Shown here in pieces: positions 43,456 to 64,000 of a stretch of DNA of 64,000 nucleotides. Both the position numbers and the translations under genes were made by a program. The number at the start of each line of letters is the position of its first letter. Within the stretch, counting starts at the first letter, position 1. This DNA comes from an uncultured Chloroflexia bacterium (lineage in GTDB: Bacteria; Chloroflexota; Limnocylindria; QHBO01), in the NCBI GenBank assembly GCA_963720505.1, contig CAVRFT010000006.1:451781-515780 (forward strand), read 5' to 3'. The notes below the pieces were generated by a model that was not told the origin of the DNA, did no database searches, and saw only the letters and a list, made by a program, of their open reading frames with translations.

Positions 43456-44865
43456 ATGATCCGCCGGCACCTGATGGCCCTTCGCATCGGCCTCATGCTC
43501 CTGGACGGCGTTGTTGCCGCGGCCGTCTTCATTGGCGTGGCCGCCCTCCGCTACCGCGACGGCGATGTCCAGGCGCTGTGGCGCACGCTGTCGATCGACC
43601 CACCCGTCGCCGCAATGCTGTTCGCGCTGCTCTGGGTGCTGGCGTTGTGGACCGTCGGCCTCTATCGGCTGAATGCCCGCTGGAACGTATGGACCGAGGT
43701 GCGGGACATCGCCCGGGCCACGCTGCTGGTGATCGCGCTGACGCTGTCCACCCTGTTCGTCTTCAAGCAGAACGACGTGAGCCGTCTGTTCCTGATCATC
43801 CTCTTCATCGCCGAGCCGACCGTCGCCCTGATCGGGCGGCTTGGCTTCCGGGCCGTGTTCGAGGCGGCACGCCAGCGCGGGCACAACGCCCGTTACATGG
43901 TGATCGCCGGCACCGGCAACCTGGCGCAGGACTTCGCGGACCAGCTGGAAGAGCACCCCGGACTGGGGATCAAGGTGATCGGCCACCTGCGGGCGCCCGG
44001 CGAGCGCAAGGCAGTCGTGAGCCGTCCCGTCCTTGGCACCATCGACGACATCGAGGACATCTTCCACAGGAGGGTCGTGGACGAGCTCGCGGTCTGCCTG
44101 CCGGCCACTGCCTGGGAATATCTCGAGCCCCTCACCCAGCTGGCCGCCAGCGAGGGCAAGACGGTTCGCATAGCGGTCGAGCCGGCCCACGAGCTGCCAT
44201 CCGGCGATGCGGAGGAAGTCTTCGACCGCTTCCTGGTCCGCTCCATCGTCAATGACGGGCATCGCGAGGCGGGCCTCATCTTCAAGCGTCTGTTCGACAT
44301 CGTTGGCGCGGCCCTGGCACTGATCATCCTCAGCCCGATCCTGCTGGCGACGGTGGTGGCCATCCGCCTCGCCGATCGGAAGCCCGCCCTCTTCGGGCAG
44401 ACCCGCATCGGCCTGCATGGCCGGCCGTTCCTCATGTACAAGTTCCGCTCGATGGTCATGGACGCCGAGGATCGGCTGCATGAGGTGAAGCATCTCAACG
44501 AACGGAGCCACGTCGCCTTCAAAGCGACCAACGACCCACGCATCACCCCCATCGGCCGCTGGCTGCGCCGGACATCCATCGACGAGCTGCCACAGCTGTG
44601 GAACGTGCTTGCCGGCTCGATGAGCCTGGTCGGTCCGCGCCCGCCGCTGCCGGCCGAGGTTGCCCGGTACGACATCTGGCACCGACGCCGATTGTCCATG
44701 AAGCCCGGCATCACCGGCCTGTGGCAGGTCGAGGCGCGCAACGAGGCCGACTTCGACGCCTGGGTCGAGCACGACCTGGTCTACATCGACGGCTGGTCGC
44801 TCTGGCTCGATCTCAAGATCCTGGTCAAGACGCTCCCGGCGCTGCTCGCCCACTCGGGCCGCTGA
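43456..44865 (+). CDS. polyprenyl-phosphate glycosyl-1-phosphate transferase (WbaP/WcaJ-type 'bacterial sugar transferase'), priming enzyme
   Basis: 469-aa ORF with N-terminal TM helices. The C-terminal block is KRLFDIVGAALALIILSPILL...YKFRSMVMDAE...DPRITPIGRWLRRTSIDELPQLWNVLAGSMSLVGPRP...KPGITGLWQV. Confidence 0.9.
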   Translation: MIRRHLMALRIGLMLLDGVVAAAVFIGVAALRYRDGDVQALWRTLSIDPPVAAMLFALLWVLALWTVGLYRLNARWNVWTEVRDIARATLLVIALTLSTLFVFKQNDVSRLFLIILFIAEPTVALIGRLGFRAVFEAARQRGHNARYMVIAGTGNLAQDFADQLEEHPGLGIKVIGHLRAPGERKAVVSRPVLGTIDDIEDIFHRRVVDELAVCLPATAWEYLEPLTQLAASEGKTVRIAVEPAHELPSGDAEEVFDRFLVRSIVNDGHREAGLIFKRLFDIVGAALALIILSPILLATVVAIRLADRKPALFGQTRIGLHGRPFLMYKFRSMVMDAEDRLHEVKHLNERSHVAFKATNDPRITPIGRWLRRTSIDELPQLWNVLAGSMSLVGPRPPLPAEVARYDIWHRRRLSMKPGITGLWQVEARNEADFDAWVEHDLVYIDGWSLWLDLKILVKTLPALLAHSGR

Positions 44866-44900
44866 CGTCCCGCCCGGCGCCGGCACGCGGCGCTCGGTGA

Positions 44901-46673
44901 TCAGTTGAACGGGAAGACGATCGGAACCAGCGTCAGGGTCAGCACGATGGTCATCAGGTTGAGCGGCACGCCCACTCGCGCGTAGTCGCCGAAGTGATAG
45001 CCGCCCAGGCCGTAGACCATGAGGTTGGTCTGGTAGCCGATGGGTGTCAGGAACGACAGGCTGGCGCCCAGCATGATCACGATCACGAATGGGCGAGCAT
45101 CGACGCCCAGCGTGAGCGCCGTGGCCACCCCGATCGGGAACATGAGCGCCGCTGCCGCGTTGTTCGACAGCAGCTCGGTCAGGGCCATGGTCGCGATCAG
45201 GACCGCGGCCAGCGCCCCAATCGCCCCCAGCGGCGACATCACGCTCACCAGGCCGCCGGCGATCGTATCGGCCAATCCGCTCGATGACACCGCCGCGCCG
45301 AGCCCGAACGCCGCGGCAATCATGATGATGATCTGCAGGTCCACCGCATCGCGGGCCTGGCGCAGGGTGAGGACCCCGGTGGCGATCACGATCAGCGCAG
45401 CGGCGATCGAGGCCTGGAGGATGGGCACCAGGCCGGAGCCGGTCGCCAGGATGAAGCCCAGGAACACGGCGCCGATCAGCCAGGCGCGCCGCGGCTGACG
45501 CGGCGAGATGCCCGACAGCGGCGCGATGACCAGGAAGTCCGGGCGATCACGCCAGCGACCACGGAAGCCGGGGTCGGACAGGACCAGCAGCGTGTCACCG
45601 ACACGCAGCGGCACGTCACCGAGCTTGGCGTCGACCCGCTGCCCAGCCCGGTGGATGGCGATCACGGCCGCGTCGTAGCGCGCCCGGAAGTCGACCTGCT
45701 TCAGCGTCTGCCCGACAACGTCCCCTCCGGCGCCGACCACGACCTCGTAGAACGCATGGACGCTGCCCGCCAGGCTGCCGATCTGGCGCGCCTCGGTCGA
45801 GGTCAGGCCGCGCACGCGCTGCAGGTCGACGATGTTGTCGACGCGGCCGACGAAGGTGAGCAGGTCGCCGCCCCGCAGGCGCTCGTCCGGGCTGACCGGC
45901 GCGATCGACCGGCCGTCGCGCCCGATCTCGACCAGGAACACGCCCTGCAGCTGTCGCAAGCCCGCCTCGCTCACGCTGGCGCCGTCGGCAGCGCCACCGG
46001 ACTCGACCGACATGCTGACCGTGAAGTCGCGGCCGCCCTCGGCAATGGCACCGCCGACCGGCGTGCGGTCCGGCAGCAGGCGCGGCACCACCAGGACGAG
46101 CACCGCCACGCCGACGAGGGCGATCGGCAGGCCCACCGCCGTCGGCTCGAACAGCCCGAGCGGCTTCATGCCGGCCTCGGTCAGCAGGCCCGAGACGGTG
46201 AGGTTCGTGGACGTGCCGATCGCCGTCACCACCCCGCCCAGGATGGCCGCGTAGCTGACCGGCATGAGGAAGCGCGACGCCGGCAGGTTGCGGCGGGCGG
46301 AGATGTCGATCACGGCGGGCACCGTCATCGCCACCAGGGTGGTGTTGTTGATGAAGGCGCTGATGCCGGCCAGCGGAAACAAGAGGCGGGACAGGATGCC
46401 GGTCGAGGTCTCAGCGCCACGGAACAGGCGGGTGACGATGGGCTGCATGATGCCGGCCACGTCCACCGCCCGGGCCACGATCAGCAGGCAGGCGACGATG
46501 ATGGGCGCCTCGTTGCTGAACCCGGCGAAGGCCTGCTCCGGCGAGATGACGCCGACGAGCATCAGGAGCACGGTCGCACCCAGTACGGCAGGACCGGGCG
46601 GCACGCGCTCCGTGTAGAGCACGACGATCATGACCGCCAGCACGGCAAGCGTGATCCAGGCGCTCAGCTCCAT
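44901..46673 (-). CDS. SLC13/DASS-family anion permease with two internal TrkA-C domains (candidate sulfate importer)
   Basis: 590-aa ORF with TM-rich halves. The central soluble region has TrkA_C-like repeats (LQGVFLVEIGRDGRSIAPVSPDERLRGGDLLTFVG; VIAIHRAGQRVDAKLGDVPLRVGDTLLVL). It sits directly upstream of cysC/sat on the same strand. Confidence 0.85.
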   Translation of the reverse strand: MELSAWITLAVLAVMIVVLYTERVPPGPAVLGATVLLMLVGVISPEQAFAGFSNEAPIIVACLLIVARAVDVAGIMQPIVTRLFRGAETSTGILSRLLFPLAGISAFINNTTLVAMTVPAVIDISARRNLPASRFLMPVSYAAILGGVVTAIGTSTNLTVSGLLTEAGMKPLGLFEPTAVGLPIALVGVAVLVLVVPRLLPDRTPVGGAIAEGGRDFTVSMSVESGGAADGASVSEAGLRQLQGVFLVEIGRDGRSIAPVSPDERLRGGDLLTFVGRVDNIVDLQRVRGLTSTEARQIGSLAGSVHAFYEVVVGAGGDVVGQTLKQVDFRARYDAAVIAIHRAGQRVDAKLGDVPLRVGDTLLVLSDPGFRGRWRDRPDFLVIAPLSGISPRQPRRAWLIGAVFLGFILATGSGLVPILQASIAAALIVIATGVLTLRQARDAVDLQIIIMIAAAFGLGAAVSSSGLADTIAGGLVSVMSPLGAIGALAAVLIATMALTELLSNNAAAALMFPIGVATALTLGVDARPFVIVIMLGASLSFLTPIGYQTNLMVYGLGGYHFGDYARVGVPLNLMTIVLTLTLVPIVFPFN

Positions 46674-46711
46674 CGGCGGCTCAGGCCTGGGTTTTGTGGG
46701 CGGTCAGGAGA

Positions 46712-47353
46712 TCAGGCGGCGGGCGGGCTGTAGCCCAGCTCCTCCAGCTTGGCGAGCACCTTCGCTGCCGACTCCTCTGGCGTCTCGCGGCCGTCGGAAT
46801 GACACACGACTTCGGGGTTGAGCGGCGCCTCGTAGGGATCGTCAACGCCCGTGAAGCCCTTGATCTCGCCCGCCATCGCCTTCTTGTAGAGGCCCTTCAC
46901 GTCGCGGTCGGCCAGGACCTGGACCGGTGCCTCCACGTAAACCTCGACGAAGCGGCCGATGTTGCCCCGGACCTGGTCTCGGATGTCGCGATACGGGCTG
47001 ATGGCTGCCGCAATGGCAACCACGTCGTTGCGCGACAGGACCTCGCACACCCAACCGATACGAAGGATGTTGGTGTCGCGGTCCTCCTTGCTGAAGCCAA
47101 GGCCCTTCGACAGGTGCTGCCGCACGGCGTCGCCGTCGAGAACCTCGACCTTGTGGCCGCGTTCCCGTAGCTCCAGCTCCAGGATGTGGGCGATGGTGCT
47201 CTTGCCCGAGCCGGAGAGGCCCGTGAACCAGAGGGTGAAGCCCGTGGTCTCGCGGTCCTGGCGCGTACCGGCGCCTCCGCCGAGGTGGATGGTCTGGCCG
47301 TGGCGGTCGGTGCTCGTGGTCAGGTCGGGCGTCGGGCGATCCGTTTGTGTCAT
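46712..47353 (-). CDS. cysC: adenylyl-sulfate (APS) kinase
   Basis: It reads [22 protein letters not shown]...[31 protein letters not shown]...[25 protein letters not shown]. Confidence 0.9.
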
Positions 47354-47376
47354 GGGTCCTTCTCTCTTGTGAGGTT

Positions 47377-48564
47377 CTAGCGCGCCGCTGCGGGCGCGCG
47401 GTAAGCGTCAATCAGGATCTTCGCCACTTCCGGCCGGCTGAACTCCTGGGGCGGCATCTCGCCGGACGACAGGAGCTCGCGAACCTTGGTGCCGGAGAGG
47501 ATCAGGTGCTGGTCATCACCGTGCGGGCAGGTCTTGTAGGAGGCCATGCCCTCGCAGGCGTTGCACCAGAAGGTGTGCTCGAAGAAGAGCGGGGTGATGC
47601 CCAGCTCATCGGGCTCGAACTCGTCGAAGATCTTCTGCGCGTCGTAGGTGCCGTAGTAGCTGCCGACGCCGGCATGGTCGCGTCCCACGATGAAGTGGGT
47701 GCAGCCGTAGTTCTTGCGCGCGATGGCGTGGAAGATCGCCTCGCGCGGGCCGCCGTAGCGCATGGCCGCCGGGTATACGCTCAGCAGCGTGCGGTCCGAC
47801 GGGTAGTAGTCGGCCAGCAGCGTCTCGTAGGCGCGCATGCGGACGTCGGCCGGGATGTCATCCGACTTGGTGTCGCCCACCAGCGGATGGATCATCAGGC
47901 CATCGGTGACCTCCAGCGCGACCTTGGTCAGGTACTCATGGGCCCGATGGATGGGGTTGCGCGTCTGGAAGCCGACCACTCGGCGCCAGCCCTTCTCGGC
48001 GAAGATGGCGCGCGTATCGGCCGGCGCGCGGCGATAGGCGGCAAAGGGCGGATCGGCCGGCCCGTTCAGGACGGTGACCTCGCCGCCCAGGTAGACCTCG
48101 CCGGCGGCGTGGATGCGCGCCACACCGGGGTGCGCATCCTCGGTGGTGCGGAAGACCTGCTCCGCCTCGTGCTGTGCGTCATAGGTGTACTTCTCGGCCA
48201 GCGCCAGGATGCCCAGCAGGCGGCCGCTCTCGTCGCGCAGGGCGACTTCGCTGCCGATCTGCAGCGCGTCCGCCTCCTCGCGGCCGATGGCCAGGGTGAT
48301 GGGAATCGACCAGGGCAGGCCGTTGGCCAGGCGCATGCTGTCGACCACCGAGCGGTAGTCGGCCTCACCCATGAAGCCGGTCAGGGGGCTGAAGGCGCCG
48401 TTGCCGATCAGCTCCAGGTCGGAGGCGGCGACGGATCCGATGGTGATGGAAGGAAGGGCGTTGGCGCGCTCGATGGCGCTCTCGCGCTCCGCTCCGGTGG
48501 GGGCGCGGTCGATGAGGACGCCGCCGTGCGGCGTCGAAGTAGCAGATGTCAAGTCAAGCTCCAT
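47377..48564 (-). CDS. sat: sulfate adenylyltransferase (ATP sulfurylase, Sat type)
   Basis: The internal ATG at 48564 of ORF 47377..48609 gives [20 protein letters not shown]. Motifs are [29 protein letters not shown] and [15 protein letters not shown]. Confidence 0.9.
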
Positions 48565-48759
48565 GTGGCGCCGACGCGGGCAGGCAGCATTCGGGATGGG
48601 GGGCCGCATCGGGTCGGGTTCCGTATCGTAGCGCCTGAGACCCCCTTCCCGCCACCCAGCACCAAGGTCATGGCCCGTGCAGGGACGATTCGAGTTGCCC
48701 GGCTACAATCCTGCGGCGCCAACACGGTCGGCGCGACGCACACGCACGAGGAGAACCGG

Positions 48760-49767
48760 TTGTCGATCGCGGCTGAACGAGGGAGCAGCATTGGTGACGT
48801 TGTGGAGGCGCTCCGCGCCGCCAAGCGGGTGAGCGCGGTCTGCCACGAGAACCCCGATGCCGACACCATCGGTGCGGCAGTCGCCGTCTGCATCATCGCC
48901 GAGCGGCTGGGCGCCGAGGCCGAGATCGTCAGCGCCGACGGCATCCCACCCATGTTCGCCTTCCTGCCCCATGTGGCGCAGGTGGTGCGCAAGCCGCACC
49001 TGGAGCCGGATCTCGCCGTCTTCTGCGACGCCGCCACGCTGGAGCGAGTCGGCCGTATCGCCACCGAGGAGGCGGACTGGTTCTCGCGGGCAACCGTGCT
49101 GAACATCGACCATCACATCAGCAGCAACTACTTCGGTGACCTCAACCTGGTGGACCCCAAGGCCGCCGCCACGTGCGAGGTCGTGGCACGGGTGGTGGAT
49201 GCGCTGGAGATCGAGCTGGACGAGGAGCTGGCAACGGCCCTCATGGTGGGGATCGTGCGCGACAGCCAGGGCTTCTCCGACATGGCCACGTCGGGCGACA
49301 CGTTGCGCGCCGCGGCGCGCCTGGTCGATGCGGGCGCCCCGTTGGCGCTCATCCATCGCCGGATCCTGTCAGAGCTGCCGTTCGCGACCATCGCCCTGTG
49401 GGGCAAGATGCTGGCCGGCGTGGGGTCCGAGGCAGACGACCGGATCGTGCACACCACGCTCATGTTGTCGATGCTCGACGAGACCGGGACCGAGCAGCAC
49501 GACGCCGACGGGCTGGCCGAGTTTCTGGCCAAGGCAAAGGGCGCCGACGTGACCCTGCTGCTGCGGGAGCTGGGCCCCGACGAGACACGCGTGAGCGTCC
49601 GCACCTCGGATGCCGTCGACGCCACGGCCATCACGTCCCGTTTCGGCGGCGGCGGCCACGTGCGGCGTGGAGGCTGCACAGTCCGCAGCCATGCCACCGA
49701 GGCCCTGAGCCTGGTGCTGGACGCCAGCCGCGCCGCCTTGGACGGGCCACCGGCAGCGGACGGCTGA
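48760..49767 (+). CDS. nrnA: DHH/DHHA1 phosphoesterase, NrnA-type (oligoribonuclease / 3'-phosphoadenosine-5'-phosphate phosphatase)
   Basis: A TTG at 48760 follows GAGGAG; it is in frame with the 3' third of the 806-aa ORF 47347..49767. Motifs are CHENPDADTIGAA, FCDAAT, NIDHHISS, GIVRDSQGF and FGGGGH. The 5' two-thirds of that ORF is antisense to sat and is rejected. Confidence 0.8.
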   Translation: MSIAAERGSSIGDVVEALRAAKRVSAVCHENPDADTIGAAVAVCIIAERLGAEAEIVSADGIPPMFAFLPHVAQVVRKPHLEPDLAVFCDAATLERVGRIATEEADWFSRATVLNIDHHISSNYFGDLNLVDPKAAATCEVVARVVDALEIELDEELATALMVGIVRDSQGFSDMATSGDTLRAAARLVDAGAPLALIHRRILSELPFATIALWGKMLAGVGSEADDRIVHTTLMLSMLDETGTEQHDADGLAEFLAKAKGADVTLLLRELGPDETRVSVRTSDAVDATAITSRFGGGGHVRRGGCTVRSHATEALSLVLDASRAALDGPPAADG

Positions 49768-49792
49768 CCGTTCCGGGCCTGGATCGCCGGCC

Positions 49793-51223
49793 TTGACCGC
49801 AGAGCTCGCGACTCCTTCCGTCGACGCGCAGCCGCTCCCGCACGCCGGAGTGCGCTGGTGGCACGAGGCGCTGATCCTGGGATCGGTCATGGTCACGCTC
49901 CTGCTGCTGGGGCTCTGGCAGCTGGGTGATCTCAGTCTCTGGCGGGACGAGGTGGCGAGCGTCGTCTTCGCCAAGGGCTCGCTGGGGGACCTGCTGACCA
50001 TCATCGGCCGCGACCGCAATGCGGTGGGACTGGCCAACATGGCGACCTACTACCTGCTGCTCCACTTCTGGCTCCTGGTCGGCGAGACCGAGGCCCGCAT
50101 CCGGCTGCTGTCGGTGCTGTTCGGGGTGGCCAGCGTGGTGCCGGTCTACTTCATCGCCCGCCGGCTGGGCGGCTGGCTGGCGGCGGCCCTGGCGGCCGGC
50201 ATCTTCGCCCTGATCCCGTACGTCATCCACTACAGCCAGGAGGCGCGTGGCTACTCGCTGGCGATGCTGATCGGCGGGGCCCTGACCTGGCTGGTGCTGA
50301 TCGGGGTCGAGCGCGGCCGTGGCGCCTGGTGGCCGTGGCTGGCGTATGGGCTGATCGCGGCGCTGGGGCTGTACGTCCACTTCTTCGTGGCGCTGGTGGT
50401 GGCCGCCCACGGGCTGTGGCTGCTGGCCACTCGCCAGGTGCCGGGCTGGCGCGGCATCGCGGCCGGCGGCATCCCCCTGCTGCTGGCGGCCGCGCCGATC
50501 CCGCTGATCATCGTCCAGTTCGGCGGGGAACAGGAGTGGATCCCGCCGCTGACGCTGTCACAGGCAGCCGGCGCGATCACCGATCTGGCGGGAGGGCTGC
50601 CGCTGCTGCTGGCGCTGACCGCACTGGGCGTGGTGGCCGTGGTGGCGCGACCGCGCGACGCCGGCATCTGGCTGATGCTGGCGTGCATCGTCATCCCGAT
50701 CGTGGGGGCGGCGGCGATCTCGCTGGTGAAGCCAATGTTCGTTGGGCGCTACCTGATCATCGTGCTGCCGTTCGTGGCGGTCCTGGCTGCCTGCGCCCTC
50801 GTGGCGCTGCCGCGGCCCTGGATGCGTGGCGCGGCGGCCGTGGCGGTGGCCGGCCTGCTGCTGCTGGCCGTTCCGAGCGCCTATGCCGACACGCACCAGC
50901 AGGACTGGCGAACCGCCGGCCCGTGGATGGCAAGCCGGGTCCAGGCGGGAGATCGAATGATCGCCGGCAATGGCCAGCGGTCGATCAACTACTACCTGCG
51001 GCAGGCAGGCGCGAAGGTCATGCCGCCCAACACGACGGCCGGCGACGCGCTGACCGAGCCTCCCGCCGGCAGGGTCTGGCTGGTGATGACCCAGAGCGCG
51101 GCCAGCAGCTCGTTGCGCGAGCGCCTGGCGGCGGGCTACGACGTGGTCGATGAGCACGAATTCGGCGACCACCTGGCGGTGGTGCTGCTGGAACCGCGCG
51201 ACACCCCGCCTGCGTCTGGCTGA
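49793..51223 (+). CDS. GT39 / ArnT-PMT-like GT-C membrane glycosyltransferase, copy A
   Basis: 476-aa ORF. It has LWRDEVASVVFAKG (DE motif after TM1), IRLLSVLFGVASVVPVYFIARRLGG, HYSQEARGYSLAM, and more than 10 TM segments. Confidence 0.8.
   Translation: MTAELATPSVDAQPLPHAGVRWWHEALILGSVMVTLLLLGLWQLGDLSLWRDEVASVVFAKGSLGDLLTIIGRDRNAVGLANMATYYLLLHFWLLVGETEARIRLLSVLFGVASVVPVYFIARRLGGWLAAALAAGIFALIPYVIHYSQEARGYSLAMLIGGALTWLVLIGVERGRGAWWPWLAYGLIAALGLYVHFFVALVVAAHGLWLLATRQVPGWRGIAAGGIPLLLAAAPIPLIIVQFGGEQEWIPPLTLSQAAGAITDLAGGLPLLLALTALGVVAVVARPRDAGIWLMLACIVIPIVGAAAISLVKPMFVGRYLIIVLPFVAVLAACALVALPRPWMRGAAAVAVAGLLLLAVPSAYADTHQQDWRTAGPWMASRVQAGDRMIAGNGQRSINYYLRQAGAKVMPPNTTAGDALTEPPAGRVWLVMTQSAASSSLRERLAAGYDVVDEHEFGDHLAVVLLEPRDTPPASG
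49958..50529 (+). repeat. 572-bp segment identical to 51411..51982 (inside GT39 copy A)
   Basis: A base-by-base comparison of the two stretches shows no mismatch. Flanks diverge immediately (g vs c at the 5' edge, a vs g at the 3' edge). Confidence 0.95.
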
Positions 51224-51233
51224 CGAAGGACCA

Positions 51234-52703
51234 ATGGAGAGCCAGCGTCCCATGTCCCGCGCCTGGCTGGCCGGGCGGATCAGCGAGGAGCATCGCGCGA
51301 ACCTGCTGAGCTGGCTGCCCTGGCTGGGACTGGTGCTGCCGATGGTGGCCCTGCTGGTGCTTGCGCTGCAGGACCTCGGCAAGCCGAGCCTGTGGCGCGA
51401 TGAAGTCTCCAGCGTCGTCTTCGCCAAGGGCTCGCTGGGGGACCTGCTGACCATCATCGGCCGCGACCGCAATGCGGTGGGACTGGCCAACATGGCGACC
51501 TACTACCTGCTGCTCCACTTCTGGCTCCTGGTCGGCGAGACCGAGGCCCGCATCCGGCTGCTGTCGGTGCTGTTCGGGGTGGCCAGCGTGGTGCCGGTCT
51601 ACTTCATCGCCCGCCGGCTGGGCGGCTGGCTGGCGGCGGCCCTGGCGGCCGGCATCTTCGCCCTGATCCCGTACGTCATCCACTACAGCCAGGAGGCGCG
51701 TGGCTACTCGCTGGCGATGCTGATCGGCGGGGCCCTGACCTGGCTGGTGCTGATCGGGGTCGAGCGCGGCCGTGGCGCCTGGTGGCCGTGGCTGGCGTAT
51801 GGGCTGATCGCGGCGCTGGGGCTGTACGTCCACTTCTTCGTGGCGCTGGTGGTGGCCGCCCACGGGCTGTGGCTGCTGGCCACTCGCCAGGTGCCGGGCT
51901 GGCGCGGCATCGCGGCCGGCGGCATCCCCCTGCTGCTGGCGGCCGCGCCGATCCCGCTGATCATCGTCCAGTTCGGCGGGGAGCACGGTTGGATTCCACC
52001 CTTCAATCTGCCGCGCTTCTATGGCGCCGTCGTCGAGCTGACCGGCAGCCTCTGGCTGCTCATCGGCCTGACCGCCCTGCTGGTGGTCGCCGCCGTGCTG
52101 CGTCGCCGCGATCCCCGTGTCTGGCTGCTGGTCGCCAGCGTCCTGCTGCCGATCGCGGTGGTGGCGGTCGTGTCCCTGTTCAAACCGTTCTTCGTCCCCC
52201 GCTACGTGATCATGGTGCTGCCCATGCTGGCGGTGCTGGCGAGCGTGGCGCTGGTGGCGGTGCGTCCCGTCCTGCTGCGAGCCGTCCTGATCGGGGCACT
52301 GGCGGTAGCGCTGGTGGTTGCGCTGCCGTCCGCCTACTGGAGCGCGACCAACATCAACTGGCGGGGGGCCGGCCGCTGGATGGCCGAGGAGGGGCGGCCG
52401 GGCGATCGGGTGTGGATGCAGTCGTGGTTCGGGTCGCCGCTCCAGTACTACCTCCATCGCGCCGGTCCCACCACCGAGCTCGACAAGGTCAGCTTCGACG
52501 AAGCCCTCTTCGACGCACGGGACCGGGTCTGGCTGGCGGTGACCGGGAAGCGCCAGGGCGAGATCCACGACATCGTGCTGCTCTTCGAGAATCGCTACCA
52601 GGTGGTCGATGCGCGCTCGCTGGGCGGCCGCGGGCGCCTGTTCCTGCTCGAGCCAATCGACGACGGCACGGCCGCTCGTTCGTCGCCGGTCGGGCGGCTT
52701 TGA
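51234..52703 (+). CDS. GT39 / ArnT-PMT-like GT-C membrane glycosyltransferase, copy B
   Basis: The ATG at 51234 (MESQRPMSRAW...) lies within ORF 51150..52703, 11 nt after the copy A stop. It has the same family motifs. The N-terminal ~55 aa and the C-terminal ~240 aa are clearly diverged from copy A. Confidence 0.8.
   Translation: MESQRPMSRAWLAGRISEEHRANLLSWLPWLGLVLPMVALLVLALQDLGKPSLWRDEVSSVVFAKGSLGDLLTIIGRDRNAVGLANMATYYLLLHFWLLVGETEARIRLLSVLFGVASVVPVYFIARRLGGWLAAALAAGIFALIPYVIHYSQEARGYSLAMLIGGALTWLVLIGVERGRGAWWPWLAYGLIAALGLYVHFFVALVVAAHGLWLLATRQVPGWRGIAAGGIPLLLAAAPIPLIIVQFGGEHGWIPPFNLPRFYGAVVELTGSLWLLIGLTALLVVAAVLRRRDPRVWLLVASVLLPIAVVAVVSLFKPFFVPRYVIMVLPMLAVLASVALVAVRPVLLRAVLIGALAVALVVALPSAYWSATNINWRGAGRWMAEEGRPGDRVWMQSWFGSPLQYYLHRAGPTTELDKVSFDEALFDARDRVWLAVTGKRQGEIHDIVLLFENRYQVVDARSLGGRGRLFLLEPIDDGTAARSSPVGRL
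51411..51982 (+). repeat. 572-bp segment identical to 49958..50529 (inside GT39 copy B)
   Basis: See the partner feature. The offset is 1453 bp, as a direct repeat. Confidence 0.95.
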
Positions 52704-52740
52704 TACCATCCCGCGGTTCCAGCCAGCCCGGGAGGATCAG

Positions 52741-54327: not shown

Positions 54328-54410
54328 CCGGCCCCGACCGGAGTTTGCCCTGCAGCCTGTACTTCTTACCCATGGCAGCAGAGCGTGAGTCATTCCATGC
54401 TGGCCCGGTC

Positions 54411-57067: not shown

Positions 57068-57975
57068 GTGGGGGGCTCCTGCAGCCAGAAGCCGAGGTCG
57101 CGCCCGACCATGGCACTGAGCCGCTCGACCTCGGGACGGAGGTCCTCGACCAGGCTGGCGCGCAGTCCCGGGTCCATGGTCGCGCGTTCCTGGGGGCGAG
57201 CGTTCAGCCGCGTGGCGGTGCGGTAGATACCCTTGCGCGTGTTCTTGGGCAGGATGCGGCGGGCGGTGCCGCGCACCCAGCCGGGCGGGCTGGCCATCAG
57301 GCGCTGCGCCAGGCGGCTGCGGCTCGCCTTGGCCGGGTTCTTGACCTCCAGCCGCGGCCGGAAGGCCTCGTCCACGCCCAGGAAGCGGAAGGTCGCGGCC
57401 ACCGATGCGGCGGTATCGGCCTTGAAGTCGTCGAAGACGATGATGTGCATCCGCTCGCGGCCGAGCGCGGCGTCGTAGCGGACCAGCTGCTCCGAGTAAT
57501 TGACGGCCTCGCGATAGAGCAGGCCGCGGGGGTTGTTGATGGCCTTGGGGATGCGGCGGCCCTCGCGCCGGTCAGGCTCCGCGGCCAGCGCCTCGCCGAA
57601 GTCGGTGATCTCCTCCAGCCCCAGGAAGACGAGCTCCGAGTGCAGAGCCTGCATCACCTCCAGCGGGTTGCGCAGCATGACGATCGCCTGCGCCTCCGGC
57701 GCGAACGCGGCGATCTCCTGGGCGGCCAGCGTGGAGCGCAGGTAGCTGACCGATGCCTCGCCCACCCGCCCGCCGGCCGGCGCGGAGGCGAAGTTGGCCA
57801 GGTACTCGTCCAGCGTCATCCGCGAGGAGTGCCGTGATGGGCGGTCGCTGCCGAAGTAGTTCAGCTCCTTGATGGCGGGCATGAAGACCGCCGGATGCTG
57901 GCGCAGGTAGTCATGCATCGAGGTCGTGCCGGACTTGGCGGCGCCGACGATGAAGAAGTCCGGGCGACGCGTCAT
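57064..57975 (-). CDS. PAPS-dependent sulfotransferase (Sulfotransfer_1/3-like), ST2
   Basis: 303-aa ORF. It has DFFIVGAAKSGTTSMHDYL and IVMLRNPLEVMQALHSE. There is a 4-nt ATGA overlap with ST1. Confidence 0.85.
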   Translation of the reverse strand: MTRRPDFFIVGAAKSGTTSMHDYLRQHPAVFMPAIKELNYFGSDRPSRHSSRMTLDEYLANFASAPAGGRVGEASVSYLRSTLAAQEIAAFAPEAQAIVMLRNPLEVMQALHSELVFLGLEEITDFGEALAAEPDRREGRRIPKAINNPRGLLYREAVNYSEQLVRYDAALGRERMHIIVFDDFKADTAASVAATFRFLGVDEAFRPRLEVKNPAKASRSRLAQRLMASPPGWVRGTARRILPKNTRKGIYRTATRLNARPQERATMDPGLRASLVEDLRPEVERLSAMVGRDLGFWLQEPPT

Positions 57976-59141
57976 CGGCCCGATGCTACCCCGGCATCGC
58001 CGCGGCCGCCGTTGGGGCCGATCACCGCGTCGAGCAGGTCGGCGTACTGCCGGATGGCGGTCTCGGGGGCGAAGGCTTCCGAACGCTGTCGGGCGCCCTC
58101 GCGCAGGCGCGCCGCCAGGGCGGGATCGGTCAGGATGCGCAGGATGGCGTCGGCCAGCGCGACCGGGTCGCGGGTCGGCACCAGCAGGCCGCTGCGCTCC
58201 GGCTCGATGATCTCGTTCGGACCGAACTCGGAGTCGGTGGCGACCGCCGCCGCGCCGACGCGCATGGCCTCGACCAGCACGAAGGGAAATGCCTCCCAGT
58301 CGGAGGCGAGCACGAACGCGTCGGCCCGCCGCATGGCCGGGAAGGGGTTCGGCGCGTAGCCGGGCAGCTGGACCGCATCGCCCAGCCCCAGCTCGGTGAT
58401 GCGTGCCTCCAGGGCGGCGCGCTCCTCGCCCTCGCCCAGGATCAGCAGCCGCGCCGGCGCCTGCTCGCGCACGCGGCGCAGCGCCTCCAGCAGGACCGGA
58501 TATGCCTTCTGGGGCGTCAGGCGGCCGACGGCCACCAGGGTCGGGCCGGGACCCGCGAACCAGGCTGCCGGCGGCTCCTCCGCCGCCAGGCGGTCGACCT
58601 CCGGGTCGAACGGGTTGTAGATGGTCGTCATGCGGTCGGCGGGCAGGCCCAGCTCGCGGGCCATCGCGTCACGCAGGCCATTCGAGACCGGCACCACCGC
58701 GGCAGCGCGGCGATAGGCGCGGGCCGCCAGGCCCAGCTGCAGCCGCTTGCCGCCGCTGGCCCGCAGGGCGTCGGGTGTGACGTGCTCGGTGGCGATCACC
58801 GGCGTGCGGGTGCCGGCCATGCGGGCGGCGGCCACCAGCAGGAGGTTCTGGTAGGTCATGAAGCCGATGGCCGCCGCCGGCCGCCGGCCGCGCAGCTCTC
58901 CCACCAGGCGCCGCAGCGTGCGCGGCAGGTCGTAGCGGGACCGCTTGTCGAGTGATCGGATCGGCACCGCCGCGGGAAGCTCGCGCGCGAAGTCCGGGTT
59001 CTCGTCGCGGCGATGCAGCACCACGATCTCGACCGCGAAGCGCTCGGGGTCCAGGCCGCGCGCCAGGATGCTGACCAGCCGCTCCATGCCGCCCAGTCGA
59101 ATGGACGGCAGCAGGAACAGGACGCGCTGCGGCCCGCTCAC
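57972..59141 (-). CDS. GT4-family (GT-B) glycosyltransferase
   Basis: A GTG at 59141 gives VSGPQRVLFLLPSIRLGGMERLV. The C-terminus is LVAVGRLTPQKAYPVLLEAL...ASDWEAFPFVLVEAMRVGAAAVATD (EX7E region). There are 4-nt overlaps at both ends (GTGA with ST3, ATGA-type with ST2). Confidence 0.85.
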   Translation of the reverse strand: MSGPQRVLFLLPSIRLGGMERLVSILARGLDPERFAVEIVVLHRRDENPDFARELPAAVPIRSLDKRSRYDLPRTLRRLVGELRGRRPAAAIGFMTYQNLLLVAAARMAGTRTPVIATEHVTPDALRASGGKRLQLGLAARAYRRAAAVVPVSNGLRDAMARELGLPADRMTTIYNPFDPEVDRLAAEEPPAAWFAGPGPTLVAVGRLTPQKAYPVLLEALRRVREQAPARLLILGEGEERAALEARITELGLGDAVQLPGYAPNPFPAMRRADAFVLASDWEAFPFVLVEAMRVGAAAVATDSEFGPNEIIEPERSGLLVPTRDPVALADAILRILTDPALAARLREGARQRSEAFAPETAIRQYADLLDAVIGPNGGRGDAGVASGR

Positions 59142-60048: not shown

Positions 60049-60151
60049 GCGCAGGCGATGCCGAGTTCGGGACGTCTCGTCACACTGGCTCCATGGCGAG
60101 GTGCTGGGCGGCGATTATAGGAAGGATGCCGATCCGCGAGCGGGAGAGCCG

Positions 60152-61177
60152 ATGTCGATAGCGCTGGTGATGACGGTCCGCGACGAGGTGGAGTTCCTGC
60201 GCCAGAACCTGCTCTACCACCGGTTTCTGGGCGCGGAGGCGGTGTACGTCTACGACGACGGCTCGACCGATGGCACTCCCGACAGCGTCGTCGACCTGCC
60301 GTTCGTGCGAGTCGCGCCCACCGTCTCGCCCGATGAACTGCCGCCGGAAGACCGCACCGACGCATCGGCGGATGAGCCGGAGCGCTACGTCACCTCTCGC
60401 CAGAACATGAACACCATCGATGCCATGCGCCGCGCCCGCGCCGATGGGATGACCTGGCTTTTGGCGATCGATGCGGATGAGCTGGCCACCGTCAGCCTGG
60501 ACGCCACCGCACCCGGCGCGCTGGCGGCGGCCTTCGATGGCGTCCCGGATGCCGTGGAGCAGGTGGTCCTGCGCCCACTCGAGATCGTCCAGCGGCGGGT
60601 CGACTTCGACGATGTGATGGCGCAGGAGACCCTCTTCAAGCGCGCCGACGTGGGGCTGGAGCACAAGACATTCGACCCGTTCACCAGCACCACCCACATG
60701 GTCCGGGGCGTCTACGGCCACACGCTCGGCAAGGGCGCGGCGCGCCTGTCGGCCGACCTGCGACCCGCCACGGTCCACCGCTTCCGGCGGCGGGGCGGGG
60801 CGCGGGCGAGATCAACCGACCTGGGCTGGCTGCTGCATTACTACTGCCACACCTTCGAGGCGTTCGTGCGCAAGTTCCGCCTCTTCCGCGATCACCCGGA
60901 CATCCACCTGCGCGGCCACGAGGTGCAGCTGCAAAAACGGCTATGGCGAGACGTGGTCAACCGCTCGGGGATGAGCGACGAGGAGCTGCGGGACTACTTC
61001 GAGCGCTGGGTGCAGTTCGACGATGAGGAGATCGCTCGGCTGCGCCACCGCCGTCGCTTCGGCGTCCTGCCACAGGCGCCGGCGATCGTGGAGGTGACCG
61101 CCGCGCGGGATGCGTTCGCGCAGATGCGCTCGGAAGCGCAAGGCGCTCAGGCGCCGGAGTCGGCCACGGGACGCTGA
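60152..61177 (+). CDS. GT-A fold glycosyltransferase (GT2 / GT92-like)
   Basis: The ATG at 60152 gives MSIALVMTVRDEVEFLRQNLLYHRFLGAEAVYVYDDGSTDGT. A DxD-like LAIDADE follows. It is divergent from the ST3 operon. Confidence 0.7.
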   Translation: MSIALVMTVRDEVEFLRQNLLYHRFLGAEAVYVYDDGSTDGTPDSVVDLPFVRVAPTVSPDELPPEDRTDASADEPERYVTSRQNMNTIDAMRRARADGMTWLLAIDADELATVSLDATAPGALAAAFDGVPDAVEQVVLRPLEIVQRRVDFDDVMAQETLFKRADVGLEHKTFDPFTSTTHMVRGVYGHTLGKGAARLSADLRPATVHRFRRRGGARARSTDLGWLLHYYCHTFEAFVRKFRLFRDHPDIHLRGHEVQLQKRLWRDVVNRSGMSDEELRDYFERWVQFDDEEIARLRHRRRFGVLPQAPAIVEVTAARDAFAQMRSEAQGAQAPESATGR

Positions 61178-61917: not shown

Positions 61918-63178
61918 GCGGCTGCAGATTAGCCGATCGTCTGGTTCGGCTCCGCTGGCGGGCAGCTGGGCCGCCATCTCGCGGTTCGCGTCGTACACGC
62001 CACCCAGTACCCGATCGGCCAGGAACGGTTCCGCCGCGCGTACCGCGTCGTCGCGGAGGCCTGCCGCCGGACGGCTGAGCACCGCATGGATGGCGGCGGC
62101 GACGGCCTCAGGCGTCCGGCCGGCGGCGACCTGGCCGGCGCCCGTCTCGCGCCACGACCGACGCAACCTCGCCGACATCGGTGGTGACCACCGGCAGGCC
62201 GGAGGCCAATGCCTCCAGGCCGACGGTCGGGCCGGTCTCGAAGGCGGAGGTGATGAGCAGCGCGTCGGCGGCATGCATCAGGCGCGCGACCTCCTCGCGC
62301 GGCACCGTGCCCAGGAGCGTGGCCGCAGATTCGAGCCCCACGGTCGCCAGTTCCGCGCGCGTCGCCGCCTCCAGGCCGCCCTCGCCCGCGATCATCAGGT
62401 GCGCGGCCGGACGGGTGGCGCGCAGCGCGGCGAAGGCACGCACCAGCAGCAGCGGATCCTTCTGGCCCTCGAGGCGGCCGGCGAAGAGCAACAGCGGCGC
62501 GTCGGGCGCCAGGCCGATCTCGGGCGGCGAGCCGCGTCGCGCTCCGCCTGCCGGGCCGCGGCATCGGCGCCGCGGAAGATGGCGGGGTCGACCCAGTTCG
62601 GCAGGAATCGGAATCGGTCGGCGACTTCGGCGAATCGCGCGCGATAGTCGGCGGTGACCTTGCGATTGACGACGTAGATGCGCTCCATGCGCCGGAAGCT
62701 GCGACGCTCGCTCATGGCCAGGCTGCGCGGAGACACGCGCCCATCGGCTTTCGCTGCCCTCGGTGGCCAGGTCCTCGACGCCCAGGTGCACCACCCGCCA
62801 CATCGGTCCGGACTGCCGGATGGGAAGGTCGGTCAGCGGGCGATGGAATGAGCTGACCACCCCGGCACCCAGGCTCCGCCCACGACGGGCCAGGGCAGCC
62901 ACGTAGCGCGCGGCGATCGGCACGCGCCCGCGCGTGTCGCCGGCGCGGACGACCGGCATGAACCTCATGGCGCGCCCCTCGAGCTCAATCTCGTGCCAGG
63001 TCCACAGCGGCAGCGACGCCGACACGCCCACCATGGAGAGGGCGAAATCGTCCGGTGCGTACTTCACGAAGCCGCGCACGAAGGTGGCGATGCCCCCGAT
63101 CCGCATCTGGCCGGGATCCGCCGGCAGGAAGATGCGGACGGGGACGGGTTGGCCAGCCGCCGTCAGGGCGGCGCTCAC
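61918..63178 (-). CDS. GT4-family (GT-B) glycosyltransferase; at least three apparent frameshifts; 3' end possibly fused to ST4
   Basis: A GTG at 63178 overlaps the upstream stop as GTGA. Fragments in different frames are VRIFLPADPGQMRIGGIATFVRGF; ERIYVVNRKVTADYRARFAEVADRFRFLPNWVDPAIF; LLLFAGRLEGQKDPLLLVRAF...ITSAFETGPTVGLEALASGLPVVTTDVGE; and ETGAGQVAAGRTPEAVAAAIHAVL. Confidence 0.7.
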
Positions 63179-64000
63179 GGATCGGCTTGGCGAGGCTGCC
63201 GCCAGGCGATGGACGCCACGATGCCGATGACCAGCATGACCAGGTAGACGCGCGACGGCGAGTGGAACATGGAGCTGGCCGCGGACTCGACCAGCGCCTG
63301 CGCGAAGACCATGCCCGCCGCCAGGCGCAGGATGCGCAGGTCTGGTTCGCCTTCCCTGCCGTTCTCCCGCCACAGCATCCAGCCCAGCGCCGCGATGAAG
63401 GCCGCATAGCCGATCAGGCCGATGACGCCCAGCTCGCCCAGGATCTGCGGCCAGAACGTGTCGGTGGCCGCCGTGGCAACTTCGGGCGGGGGCTGCAGGC
63501 CGCGGATGTGGCTCGCGTCGTAGGTCACGTACAGCGGGCTGTAGTGCTCGCGACTCATCCAGCTGCCCCACCGGCCCAGGCCGCCACCCAGCGGGAAGTC
63601 GTCGACGGCGATCTCGAACGAGCCGCGGTACAGGGCGAACCGGGCGCGCTCGTTCTCGCCCTCGCCGACCGGTTCCTCGATCGGCGTCTCACCGGGTGAC
63701 AGGGTGGGCTCGGCGCCGTTCTCGAGAGTAGCGACCCAGGAACGAGTCGTACAGCCCCGTCAGCAGCGACAGGAAGACGAGGAACAGCACCACCCCGCTG
63801 ATCGCGGCCGGGATCCAGGTGCGCCAGTACGCGCGCCAGCTCTCGAACATGGCTGCGCGACGCCACCGCGGCCGCCAGCGCCCCGGCGGCCAGCGCCAGG
63901 ATCGCCCGGCGGCGGGCGGACAGGAACGGGCCGATCGCCGCGAACACGGAGAGCAGCCAGCCAGCGCAGCTGGCGCGTGACGACGTAGCGCGCCAGCAGC
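63175..64000 (-). CDS. O-antigen ligase / Wzy-like polymerase family membrane protein (5' end beyond window; frameshifted)
   Basis: ORF 63175..63558 contains TDTFWPQILGELGVIGLIGYAAFIAALGWML, the family's conserved C-terminal region. Upstream frames give FALYRGSFEIAVDDFPLGGGLGRWGSWMS and TM-like WLLSVFAAIGPFLSARRRAILALAAGALAAAV. Confidence 0.65.

Follow-up and report, generated by a model that had tools for sequence, protein, structure and literature searches.

A resident, hypervariable locus of the Wzx/Wzy type has its left two-thirds in the right-hand part of the window (the whole stretch of 64,000 nucleotides that was analysed), at positions 43456-64000; with a probability of roughly two in three, it directs the synthesis of a multiply O-sulfated heteropolysaccharide of the envelope or matrix and carries its own module for PAPS supply and recycling. 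The host is an uncultured soil bacterium with a Limnocylindria-like genome (Chloroflexota). The most likely product predicted from the genes of this conserved, self-supplied cluster is a heavily sulfated surface polysaccharide, and the sulfate groups could instead be carried by a glycan linked to protein or lipid, not by a free polymer. To our knowledge, a sulfated polymer of such kind has so far been shown genetically only in cyanobacteria. New ORF calls with a codon-usage model, then scanned against Pfam and NCBIfam, confirmed the candidate sulfated-glycan gene set that a sequence-only reading had proposed for this region:

43456..44865, + strand, priming polyprenyl-phosphate glycosylphosphotransferase (WbaP/WcaJ/EpsZ-like; Bac_transf 230 bits plus CoA_binding_3)
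44901..46673, - strand, SLC13/DASS-type anion permease (CitMHS 227 bits, Na_sulph_symp, two TrkA_C)
46712..47353, - strand, adenylyl-sulfate (APS) kinase CysC (PF01583 204 bits; NF002059 273 bits against a cutoff of 244)
47377..48564, - strand, ATP sulfurylase Sat, PUA_2 plus ATP-sulfurylase type (Pfam 331 and 192 bits)
48760..49767, + strand, NrnA-type DHH/DHHA1 phosphoesterase (DHH and DHHA1 domains)
49793..51223, + strand, GT-C fold glycosyltransferase, PMT_2, paralogue a (PF13231 43 bits; about 10 TM segments)
51234..52703, + strand, GT-C fold glycosyltransferase, PMT_2, paralogue b (PF13231 42.9 bits)
52816..54327, + strand, fusion of a GtrA/DPMS-type 4-TM domain and a PEPCK/HprK-fold P-loop domain (GtrA_DPMS_TM 74.5 bits)
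54345..56162, + strand, secreted right-handed beta-helix protein (Beta_helix 42 bits, NosD 32 bits)
56156-57067, - strand, g55, soluble PAPS-dependent sulfotransferase (ST; Sulfotransfer_3, heparan-sulfate-ST-like; PF13469 63.7 bits)
57064-57975, - strand, g56, PAPS-dependent ST (Sulfotransfer_3; PF13469 45.1 bits)
57972..59141, - strand, GT4 glycosyltransferase (Glycos_transf_1 127 bits plus Glyco_transf_4 72 bits)
59147-60048, - strand, g58, third Sulfotransfer_3 gene, frameshifted (PF13469 66.0 bits)
60101..61177, + strand, soluble GT-A glycosyltransferase, Glyco_tranf_2_4 (PF13704 51.5 bits against a threshold of 27.5)
61147-61917, - strand, g60, predicted divergent Sulfotransfer_2-like ST of 255 aa (own Pfam score 17.1 against a threshold of 22)
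61942..63178, - strand, second GT4, broken by indels (Glycos_transf_1 85.6 bits)
63181..>64000, - strand, Wzy/O-antigen-ligase-like multi-TM protein, C-terminal part of about 270 codons (TM pattern and position)

The four STs of two families that had been proposed were recovered as three Sulfotransfer_3 proteins (gathering score 27) and one divergent, Sulfotransfer_2-like protein. The 5'-PSB loop (K13, T16) and the R-x-P motif of the 3'-PB are invariant across g55, g56, g58 and XssA of the synechan cluster. Specifically, g55 matches PDB 3rnl (E 6e-43), HS3ST1, HS3ST3A1 and NDST (E about 1e-6, the alignment matching PKxGTT, RDP and the catalytic Glu) and XssA (28% identity, E 2e-22), and its paralogue g56 (47% identical) has 1510 homologues, those with names being Chloroflexota or Limnocylindria. 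In g55 and g56, a Glu occupies the aligned position of the catalytic Glu in heparan-sulfate 3-OST; as a caveat, the g58 clade has Leu or Val at this position, with GLAY/GVAY in place of GEAS. As for g60, 74 of 96 diverse representatives of its family match Sulfotransfer_2, and the AF2 model (pLDDT 85) has only STs as structural neighbours, all its top Foldseek matches being of this type though weak (TM 0.36-0.41), which together identify g60 as a predicted ST. It retains an invariant R62-N-P64 and the PRTGS loop, so that PAPS-binding residues are present in both families.

The genes for sulfate supply that had been named, encoding the SLC13 permease, Sat, CysC and the NrnA-type protein, were all found again, with the DASS and NrnA models scoring below their equivalog cutoffs (120 bits, under 198.6, for the permease; 70.9, under 350, for the DHH protein) and NF003166 well above its own on Sat (570 bits, cutoff 387). 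Relatives show the permease gene in linkage with CysC/Sat or CysDN, and its product probably imports sulfate. The best solved relatives of the DHH protein are NrnA and, at their head, Rv2837c (CnpB), annotated as "bifunctional oligoribonuclease and PAP phosphatase NrnA" (E 2e-33; DHH and GGGH motifs aligned), which suggests a PAP (3'-phosphoadenosine-5'-phosphate) phosphatase.

The WbaP-type priming transferase, the two GT4 and the GT-A enzyme were likewise confirmed by Pfam/NCBIfam. The former (469 aa, about 5-6 TM segments) scores 402 bits with TIGR03025 (EPS priming transferase; cutoff 295.55), the GT4 at 57972..59141 matches its orthologue in the related locus L001 over the full length, and the GT-A protein has zero TM segments and orthologues in L001 and L172. 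The Wzy/O-antigen-ligase-like label was kept on the strength of about 10 TM segments, a large loop (residues 335-425) and the gene position, with zero Pfam or profile matches for 63181..>64000; the protein extends past the window end to a full size of 515-525 aa and is 56% identical to L001:2407-3954. Genes for Wzx, an ABC exporter, PCP, OPX or LCP are absent from 43456-64000. The flippase that was expected beyond 64000 is borne out in five related loci, where Wzx (Polysacc_synt) lies directly past the Wzy-like gene.

Pfam also confirmed the two GT-C enzymes as PMT_2 proteins; paralogues a and b share an identical tract of 572 nt, and L001 holds an orthologue of b. The GtrA domain, confirmed as well, matches the TM domain of dolichyl-P-mannose synthase in 5mlz (E 8e-7). 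The same protein has an extra C-terminal kinase-like domain of about 380 aa, missed by the sequence-only reading, with an invariant Walker A motif (TDTGKTS) and a HprK_rel_A match (E 1.4e-7); in the AF2 model (pLDDT 82.7), Foldseek relates it to PEP carboxykinase (E 7e-6, probability 1.0) and HprK/P (E 1e-3). The beta-helix protein is upheld by the Beta_helix/NosD matches, and its N-terminus (MTRRARSTLLLALALTA...) resembles a signal peptide, as expected of a secreted protein. It is kept in L001-L004, L010 and L172 and may process the glycan, as a glycanase, a lyase or an epimerase.

The locus is colinear with L172, a 336-kb metagenome contig, over 21.2 kb at 89.4% nucleotide identity and is syntenic in many relatives, the same modules being present in L001-L010 at 50-80% ST identity. 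There, the PAPS, DHH and ST genes form the constant part, and it is the glycan genes that differ from locus to locus (UDP-Glc dehydrogenase, nonulosonic-acid genes, heparinase II/III-like, MBOAT, LCP). The label "island" is not supported, because the G+C content is that of the surroundings and the locus occupies a chromosomal site next to serA that is conserved among relatives. Every relative is a MAG or metagenome contig from an uncultured organism, and none of the homologous loci has been assigned to a non-sulfated product; the interpretation as a sulfated polysaccharide or envelope glycan held against each of the refutations named for it that was run.

The association of PAPS supply with ST and glycan genes is not explained by chance, since it was present in each of the related loci examined that were long enough and, of 80 unrelated Sat loci, only 2 have a member of the window-type ST family close by. 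Sat, CysC, SLC13 and DHH might nonetheless be ordinary assimilation and nanoRNase genes that merely sit beside a glycan locus, with STs that use the general PAPS pool or modify small molecules or lipids, and the Sat-CysC adjacency in about half of 80 unrelated loci and the housekeeping role of NrnA-type enzymes in many monoderm bacteria speak in this direction. This explanation is improbable in view of several lines of evidence. The ST linkage is kept across relatives despite the turnover of glycan genes, and the STs resemble the carbohydrate STs HS3ST, NDST and XssA. In some relatives the Sat slot is occupied in situ by CysD plus CysN, both above cutoff. The DHH gene belongs to a clade specific to this locus: of the homologues with at least 55% identity, 21 of 22 have sulfur-activation, ST or glycan genes as neighbours (counting loci with 2 kb or more of flank; 6 of 6 where the flank reaches 8 kb), against 0 of 39 homologues below 55%, a second clade of equal G+C. 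Lastly, 23 of 80 control sat loci have a cysH-like ORF upstream of sat, a feature that neither the window nor any ST-linked locus shows. The CysDN replacement, the DHH clade and the cysH pattern tie the PAPS supply to the glycan genes and, together with the conserved ST linkage, make it unlikely that sat/cysC is merely an assimilatory copy.

A different product, namely a sulfated glycan on a surface (S-layer) protein, would be assembled likewise as a lipid-linked sulfated oligosaccharide and then passed to protein with the Wzy/O-antigen-ligase-like protein in the role of O-oligosaccharyltransferase; alternatively, the PMT_2 enzymes would perform protein O-glycosylation. Protein O-mannosyltransferases belong to the PMT_2 family, the 515-aa multi-TM protein is indistinguishable from O-OTase or ligase-type enzymes, and a chain-length regulator was found in none of the related loci examined. 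Conversely, the PMT_2, GtrA and beta-helix genes are missing from L008 and L009, which retain the ST, Wzx, Wzy-like and PAPS genes, so that the GT-C enzymes are accessory; moreover, an LCP (LytR_cpsA_psr) ligase adjoining the L010 cluster suggests wall attachment and an S-layer protein gene was not seen, leaving the protein-linked glycan rather unlikely. The locus could also be read as decaying, as it has nine frame changes within 59.1-64.0 kb against zero in 43.4-59.1 kb; if these were real, the locus would be dead in the host genome and no polymer would be made. They comprise two frameshifts in g58 (about 59430 and 59333; frames -2, -3 and -1, judged against intact 302-aa orthologues of L001 and L172), four 1-nt indels in the second GT4 (frame changes at about 62740, 62530, 62150 and 61953, placed against intact 390/407-aa orthologues) and about three frameshifts in the Wzy-like gene. 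An apparent read-through of the second GT4 into g60 was dismissed as an artefact of the indel frame changes, by comparison with the intact orthologues. The g58-type ST, second GT4 and Wzy-like genes are intact in L172 and L001, and in L172 it is instead SLC13, Sat, DHH and PMT_2 that are split. Since different genes are broken in the window and in the 89%-identical L172, the nine frameshifts are most likely random indel errors of long-read assembly; the housekeeping gene serA is likewise split by one frameshift, further genes are fragmented across the window and a high third-position G+C persists in the shifted frames, which makes decay very improbable.

For the preferred product, an O-sulfated heteropolysaccharide, the predicted order of events would start with sulfate import by the SLC13/DASS permease and the formation of APS by Sat and then of PAPS by CysC. 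On the cytoplasmic side of the membrane, the priming transferase would begin the repeat unit on polyprenyl phosphate, the two GT4 and the GT-A enzyme would extend it, and three to four soluble PAPS-dependent STs would sulfate different positions of the lipid-linked unit, releasing PAP that would otherwise inhibit them and that the locus-specific NrnA-type DHH phosphoesterase would hydrolyse. The Wzx flippase, encoded just beyond the window, and the Wzy-like protein would export and polymerise the unit, and the accessory module (two PMT_2 GT-C enzymes, GtrA-kinase fusion, secreted beta-helix protein) may decorate or trim the product outside the membrane.

The earlier claim that this is not a described system was overstated: individual ideas have clear precedents in synechan xss, in the predicted wps-1 cluster of Actinoplanes and in nodPQ-nodH. 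The closest known system is the synechan xss cluster on plasmid pSYSM of Synechocystis sp. PCC 6803 (PMC8205485), a Wzx/Wzy-type heteropolysaccharide cluster with STs among the GT genes, as here, and with two ST subfamilies in one cluster, again as here. XssA is 23-28% identical to g55, g56 and g58 (E 1e-15 to 2e-22), the xss sugar transferase 44% to the priming transferase, and the xss Wzx 27% to that of the window's relatives. In contrast, xss lacks a sulfate permease, Sat/CysC and PAP phosphatase, all of which are predicted in the window locus, as well as the GT-C, GtrA-kinase and beta-helix module; it has 2 STs against 4 in the window and up to 6 in L001, and has the diderm-envelope components PCP (XssK) and OPX (XssT), which were not found in the window or its relatives. 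Moreover, xss is plasmid-borne and regulated by XssQRS, whereas the window locus is chromosomal and beside serA.

In rhizobia, nodPQ-nodH encodes a private sulfate-activation set beside a PAPS-consuming sulfotransferase, a principle shared with the window locus, and Sinorhizobium megaplasmids carry g55 homologues (30-33% identity). However, for nodPQ-nodH and the Sinorhizobium LPS/K-antigen STs the acceptor is a lipo-chitooligosaccharide or LPS, activation by nodPQ is of the CysDN rather than the Sat/CysC type, and the cluster has no permease or PAP phosphatase and is not a Wzx/Wzy locus. The sulfated EPS cluster wps-1 of Actinoplanes missouriensis (PMC13390465, 2026), for which sulfation is predicted as it is for the window locus, similarly combines Wzx/Wzy with two STs of different families, one heparan-sulfate-ST-like, in a monoderm, high-G+C host of a different phylum, a likeness seen at the level of gene description. 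Unlike the window locus, it holds a Wzz-like protein, a GH26 enzyme, a methyltransferase and a kinase-like protein, and a search of the paper's text, as distinct from the gene list, did not return the word "PAPS" (PMC13390465). GtrA-dependent extracytoplasmic glycosylation (GtrA-type gsf cluster) was studied alongside it (PMC13390465).

In the mycobacterial sulfolipid system (Stf0, CysDNC, CysQ), a glycoconjugate of the envelope is sulfated from PAPS in a lineage derived from monoderms, as is predicted for the window locus, but the genes of that system are dispersed, its acceptor is a trehalose lipid and it has one ST per product. With the animal heparan-sulfate STs (HS3ST1/3A1, NDST), the fold, the 5'-PSB loop, the 3'-PB motif and the catalytic Glu can all be aligned, and several of these animal enzymes act in a position-specific manner on one glycan, as is predicted for the STs of the window locus; they are type II membrane proteins of the Golgi lumen that modify the finished polymer, whereas the window STs are soluble and cytoplasmic, have no TM segment and presumably sulfate the repeat unit while it is linked to lipid.

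The segment at 43456-64000 combines genes for the assembly of a glycan, for its sulfation and for the supply of the sulfate donor, and is predicted from sequence to encode a sulfated-glycan system. On account of a G+C content of about 70% and numerous spurious ORFs in the window, genes were re-called by a codon-usage model and then scanned against Pfam and NCBIfam, which gave the following inventory.

Genes of the locus, with coordinates, strand, assignment and supporting match
43456-44865, plus: priming polyprenyl-phosphate glycosylphosphotransferase g46 (TIGR03025, 402 bits, above the cutoff of 295.55; Bac_transf, 230 bits)
44901-46673, minus: SLC13/DASS-like permease with two TrkA_C domains (DASS score below cutoff)
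46712-47353, minus: CysC (curated model, 273 bits, above the cutoff of 244)
47377-48564, minus: Sat (curated model, 570 bits, above the cutoff of 387)
48760-49767, plus: DHH/DHHA1 phosphoesterase (closest solved structures Rv2837c/NrnA, E 2e-33)
49793-51223 and 51234-52703, plus: two tandem PMT_2 GT-C enzymes (Pfam)
52816-54327, plus: g53, GtrA domain with an additional domain (GtrA_DPMS_TM, 74.5 bits)
54345-56162, plus: secreted beta-helix protein (Pfam)
56156-57067 and 57064-57975, minus: Sulfotransfer_3 proteins g55 and g56 (63.7 and 45.1 bits, threshold 27)
57972-59141, minus: GT4 (Pfam)
59147-60048, minus: third Sulfotransfer_3 protein, g58 (66.0 bits, threshold 27)
60101-61177, plus: GT-A (Pfam PF13704)
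61147-61917, minus: g60, Sulfotransfer_2-like, 255 aa (transitive Pfam test)
61942-63178, minus: second GT4 (Pfam)
63181 to beyond 64000, minus: Wzy-like protein with about 10 TM segments, C-terminal half only (topology and position)

The annotation agrees with the genes for glycan assembly, sulfation and sulfate supply listed in the sequence-only reading, with three qualifications. Specifically, the enzymes called GT39 do have the GT-C fold and can be named as PMT_2/GT-C but not by the CAZy label itself; the Wzy-like protein stands on topology and position and lacks a Pfam profile match; and of the four sulfotransferases (STs) of two families, three are Sulfotransfer_3 proteins, while the fourth is below threshold when taken alone and is accepted through the members of its family. 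A PDB sequence search with the beta-helix protein gave no match.

Among the STs, g55 matches the bacterial sulfotransferase structure 3rnl (E 6e-43) and, at about 1e-6, the heparan-sulfate 3-O- and N-sulfotransferases, where PKxGTT loop, RDP motif and catalytic Glu are in alignment. The PAPS-binding residues, looked for because their loss could refute the sulfation claim, are kept: K13 and T16 of the 5'-PSB and R101 and P103 of the 3'-PB are invariant in 10/10 aligned proteins, including XssA of the Synechocystis synechan cluster (xss), and they align to HS3ST1. The position of the 3-OST catalytic Glu is occupied by Glu in g55 and g56 (GEAS) as well as in XssA, and by Leu or Val (GLAY/GVAY) in the g58 clade (window 59147-60048, minus strand; L172:16366-17274; L001:7937-8845), which retains both PAPS-binding motifs and may employ another base or a different catalysis. 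The STs contain no TM segment, so sulfation should be cytoplasmic.

The assignment of g60 follows a longer route. It does not reach the Sulfotransfer_2 gathering threshold (17.1 bits for the extended ORF against 22), its core ORF matches only Sulfotransfer_1 (15.8 bits), and sequence and profile searches against the PDB returned nothing significant. Its family comprises 7793 representative clusters at E <=0.001, from which 96 diverse representatives, matching the family profile at E <=1e-40, were scanned against Pfam: Sulfotransfer_2 (PF03567) is found in 74 (best 3.4e-13), Sulfotransfer_1 in 16 and Sulfotransfer_3 in 5, next to two unrelated families with one member each. On this transitive test g60 is accepted as a divergent Sulfotransfer_2-type enzyme. 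R62 and P64 are invariant; the AF2 model (pLDDT 85) retrieves sulfotransferases as all top four Foldseek matches in the PDB, weakly (TM 0.36-0.41), and in an hhalign comparison with the Sulfotransfer_3 alignment PRTGS and RNP fall on the PSB and PB motifs, at a probability of just 1.4%.

The PAPS module (SLC13 permease, Sat, CysC and DHH phosphoesterase) belongs to the glycan system, on the basis of four independent observations, namely the replacement of Sat by CysDN, the clade of the DHH enzyme, the rarity of ST linkage among Sat loci and the absence of cysH. Specifically, CysD and CysN, both above their curated cutoffs, fill the slot of the homo-oligomeric Sat in the related locus L009 (14289-16471) and in five metagenome loci (L094, L095, L100-L102), with CysC, SLC13 and DHH as neighbors like in the window. 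This is a non-orthologous replacement that keeps the function within the locus, and the interchangeability of Sat and CysDN in one slot argues that the genes for PAPS supply and recycling are selected within the glycan locus. DHH homologs in a metagenome scan fall into two groups that do not differ in G+C: among those at >=55% identity, 21/22 loci with a flank of >=2 kb, and 6/6 with one of >=8 kb, contain genes for sulfur activation, STs or glycan genes, against 0/39 below 55% identity, so that the DHH protein of the locus represents a specialized clade, distinct from the presumably housekeeping NrnA. In a control set of 80 Sat loci across the GTDB species set, mostly from other phyla, this ST family occurs within 10 kb of Sat in two, and sat is closely preceded by a cysH-type ORF (ECG[IL]H motif) in 23; the window and all ST-linked loci lack such an ORF. 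A dual use of the module, serving cysteine synthesis as well, is possible.

NrnA and Rv2837c have PAP phosphatase activity. The DHH protein carries the Pfam domains DHH and DHHA1, its DHH and GGGH motifs align with the Rv2837c and NrnA structures, and it scores 70.9 bits against the NrnA equivalog NF053633, below the cutoff of 350; by analogy with these two enzymes, it would remove PAP.

For the STs, g60 and g53, the named homologs belong to MAGs of Chloroflexota or Candidatus Limnocylindria. A survey of synteny, proposed as a check in the sequence-only reading, found the locus conserved in relatives; window 42746-64000 and the 336-kb ENA metagenome contig L172 (ERZ25039588 contig_59259) are colinear and 89.4% identical in nucleotide sequence. 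In remoter relatives (ST identity 50-80%) the core is kept, consisting of the STs, GT4, g60-like, Wzy-like and Wzx proteins together with DHH, ATP sulfurylase, CysC and SLC13, while UDP-glucose dehydrogenase, a full nonulosonic-acid pathway, heparinase II/III-like, MBOAT and LCP-ligase genes vary and the number of STs ranges from 2 to 6. L008, L009, L172 and the window share the same flanking genes, namely serA, metallophosphoesterase and MBL. Because the core is constant, the glycan genes turn over and the flanks are the same, this is a resident hypervariable glycan locus, comparable to an O-antigen or capsule locus. A reading as a genomic island is rejected: G+C (0.67-0.74) equals that of the rest of the window, the flanks are syntenic in relatives, and the sole RNA gene detected in the window, tRNA-Pro(CGG) at 34185-34261 (minus strand), is about 9 kb away. 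Rfam gave no regulatory RNA within the locus.

Among the variants, L002 (4679-6694), L003 and L004 have, between a GT4 and the STs, a gene for a heparinase II/III-like protein with Hepar_II_III_N and Hepar_II_III_C, and UDP-glucose dehydrogenase or the complete nonulosonic-acid pathway occurs in others (L005, L009). These genes point to probable uronic- or sialic-acid-like sugars in the related polymers. A sulfatase gene borders one locus (L007:20126-20720), and a gene for a wall ligase of the LCP (LytR_cpsA_psr) type borders another (L010:778-1752); the latter hints at possible wall attachment of the polymer.

Regarding export, no Wzx (Polysacc_synt/MOP) gene is present in 43456-64000, the window ending inside the Wzy-like gene. 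As an exact-sequence look-up of a window protein returned no record, the gene content past 64000 was inferred from relatives: in L001, L005, L008, L009 and L010, Wzx directly follows the Wzy-like gene, at a distance of no more than a few kb, in accordance with the earlier suggestion of export genes beyond the window. The 515-aa ortholog of the Wzy-like protein has about 10 TM segments and a large loop, with no match to Wzy_C or any other Pfam family even at E <=1 and no BLAST match to XssF. PCP and OPX domains are absent from the window and from +/-10 kb in 10 related loci, and the lack of OPX would fit a monoderm envelope.

The PMT_2 pair, the GtrA-kinase fusion g53 and the beta-helix protein are absent from L008 and L009, where the other genes are kept. 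Sources label g53 a "GtrA flippase" or a "dolichol-phosphate mannosyltransferase", but it is a fusion: its 4-TM domain shares 32% identity with the TM domain by which archaeal DPM synthase binds lipid phosphate, and its C-terminal domain has the kinase-like PEP-carboxykinase/HprK P-loop fold, the Walker A motif TDTGKTS being invariant. Of its 1414 homologs, those with a named source are from Limnocylindria or Chloroflexota. Of the Gtr-type three-component system for extracytoplasmic glycosylation, the GtrA-like 4-TM protein (74.5 bits) and the GT-C component (PMT_2, twice) are present, and a membrane GT2 polyprenyl-phosphate sugar synthase (GtrB/CsbB/DPMS) is missing, given that the only GT-A of the window (PF13704) has no TM segment and that the soluble domain fused to GtrA has the PEPCK/HprK fold and not that of a GT-A.

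The PMT_2 paralogs share a perfectly identical 572-nt tract (49958-50529 = 51411-51982), the remainder being 45-70% identical. It might be ascribed to a misassembly, yet within-genome identity recurs in L172 (575 nt) and L001 (551 nt), while between genomes the tract is 96% identical to that of L172 and 83.5% to that of L001; one artefact would have to arise three times, which is less likely than the recurrent gene conversion of the PMT_2 N-terminal core that the pattern indicates. With respect to the intact orthologs of L001 and L172, the third ST has two frame changes (59333, 59430), the second GT4 four (61953, 62150, 62530, 62740) and the Wzy-like gene about three (63690-63960). Such breaks could denote genuine decay, and L172 has splits as well; however, these affect different genes (SLC13, Sat, DHH and one PMT_2), the three genes broken here being intact there, splits occur throughout the window and the contig names of the related ENA assemblies are Flye-style. 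Long-read indel errors are thus preferred, and real gene decay is very improbable. An apparent GT4-sulfotransferase fusion ORF (61147-62274) is false, a 1-nt insertion near 61953 masking the TAA stop seen in L172. Across the window, single-base frameshifts split genes at 40855-42457 (minus strand), around 27340, at 12.4-13.8 kb and at 59.1-64.0 kb, examples being serA (at 41753), a permease-like gene (near 27340) and fragments of panB/panC; scattered breaks of this kind are typical of unpolished long-read assemblies.

nodPQ-nodH is a precedent for a sulfotransferase with a private supply of PAPS next to it. Of the characterized systems, the synechan xss cluster comes closest: identity to XssA is 23-28% for the window STs, g46 is 44% identical to its xss counterpart and the Wzx of relatives 27%. 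The locus differs from xss in its embedded module for PAPS supply and recycling, its larger number of STs, its GT-C/GtrA-kinase module, its phylum and the lack of PCP and OPX. Deletion of XssA abolishes EPS accumulation. In the recent literature, sulfated polysaccharides among bacteria are regarded as essentially cyanobacterial (PMC8205485; PMC13390465), and a 2026 Actinoplanes paper, which predicts a sulfated EPS cluster, describes them as so far only cyanobacterial (PMC13390465). Conversely, sulfated GAG-like polymers have been found chemically in sludge granules and biofilms, with neither producers nor pathways known (PMC10483923; PMC7356697), and work on Pontiella and granular sludge describes such polymers, likewise with no known biosynthetic pathway. 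A literature search for sulfotransferases or sulfated glycans in Limnocylindria or Chloroflexota found nothing relevant.

In the proposed pathway, the SLC13/DASS permease would import sulfate, which Sat and CysC, according to their family assignment, would convert to PAPS; g46 would prime the repeat unit on polyprenyl phosphate, two GT4 enzymes and the GT-A would extend it, and the soluble STs would sulfate it at several positions, while the dedicated DHH enzyme would clear PAP. Wzx would then flip the unit and the Wzy-like protein polymerize it, with the PMT_2 pair, the GtrA-kinase fusion and the beta-helix protein as a putative accessory extracytoplasmic module.

Limnocylindria are an abundant uncultured class of Chloroflexota in soil and freshwater. 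A wider reading, tentative and given as a whole a probability of about 0.3, is that they may generally be coated with a heavily sulfated GAG-like anionic polymer, made with 4-6 STs per repeat unit and, in relatives, also containing uronic or nonulosonic acids; that it would be encoded by a serotype-like hypervariable locus, self-sufficient in sulfate import, PAPS synthesis and PAP removal; and that g53 would be a previously unrecognized membrane enzyme, joining a PEPCK/HprK-fold kinase to a GtrA/DPMS polyprenyl-phosphate-binding domain, which might phosphorylate the glycan on its lipid carrier or supply the two GT-C enzymes, themselves evolving in concert, with a new lipid-linked donor. The locus offers a concrete and widely conserved genetic candidate for a sulfated polymer in a dominant uncultured soil lineage, and its STs form a panel of soluble bacterial carbohydrate sulfotransferases, accompanied by a PAPS regeneration set, that could be expressed for enzymatic glycan sulfation.

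The combination of STs, Sat or CysDN, CysC, an SLC13 permease and a dedicated DHH phosphoesterase provides a signature for metagenome searches. The linkage of sulfate activation to STs may also occur outside Chloroflexota: in a Gaiellaceae MAG contig (DATHVD010000048, L065), an actinobacterial cysH-sat-cysC cluster has two distant homologs of these STs, 33-34% identical, within 10 kb.
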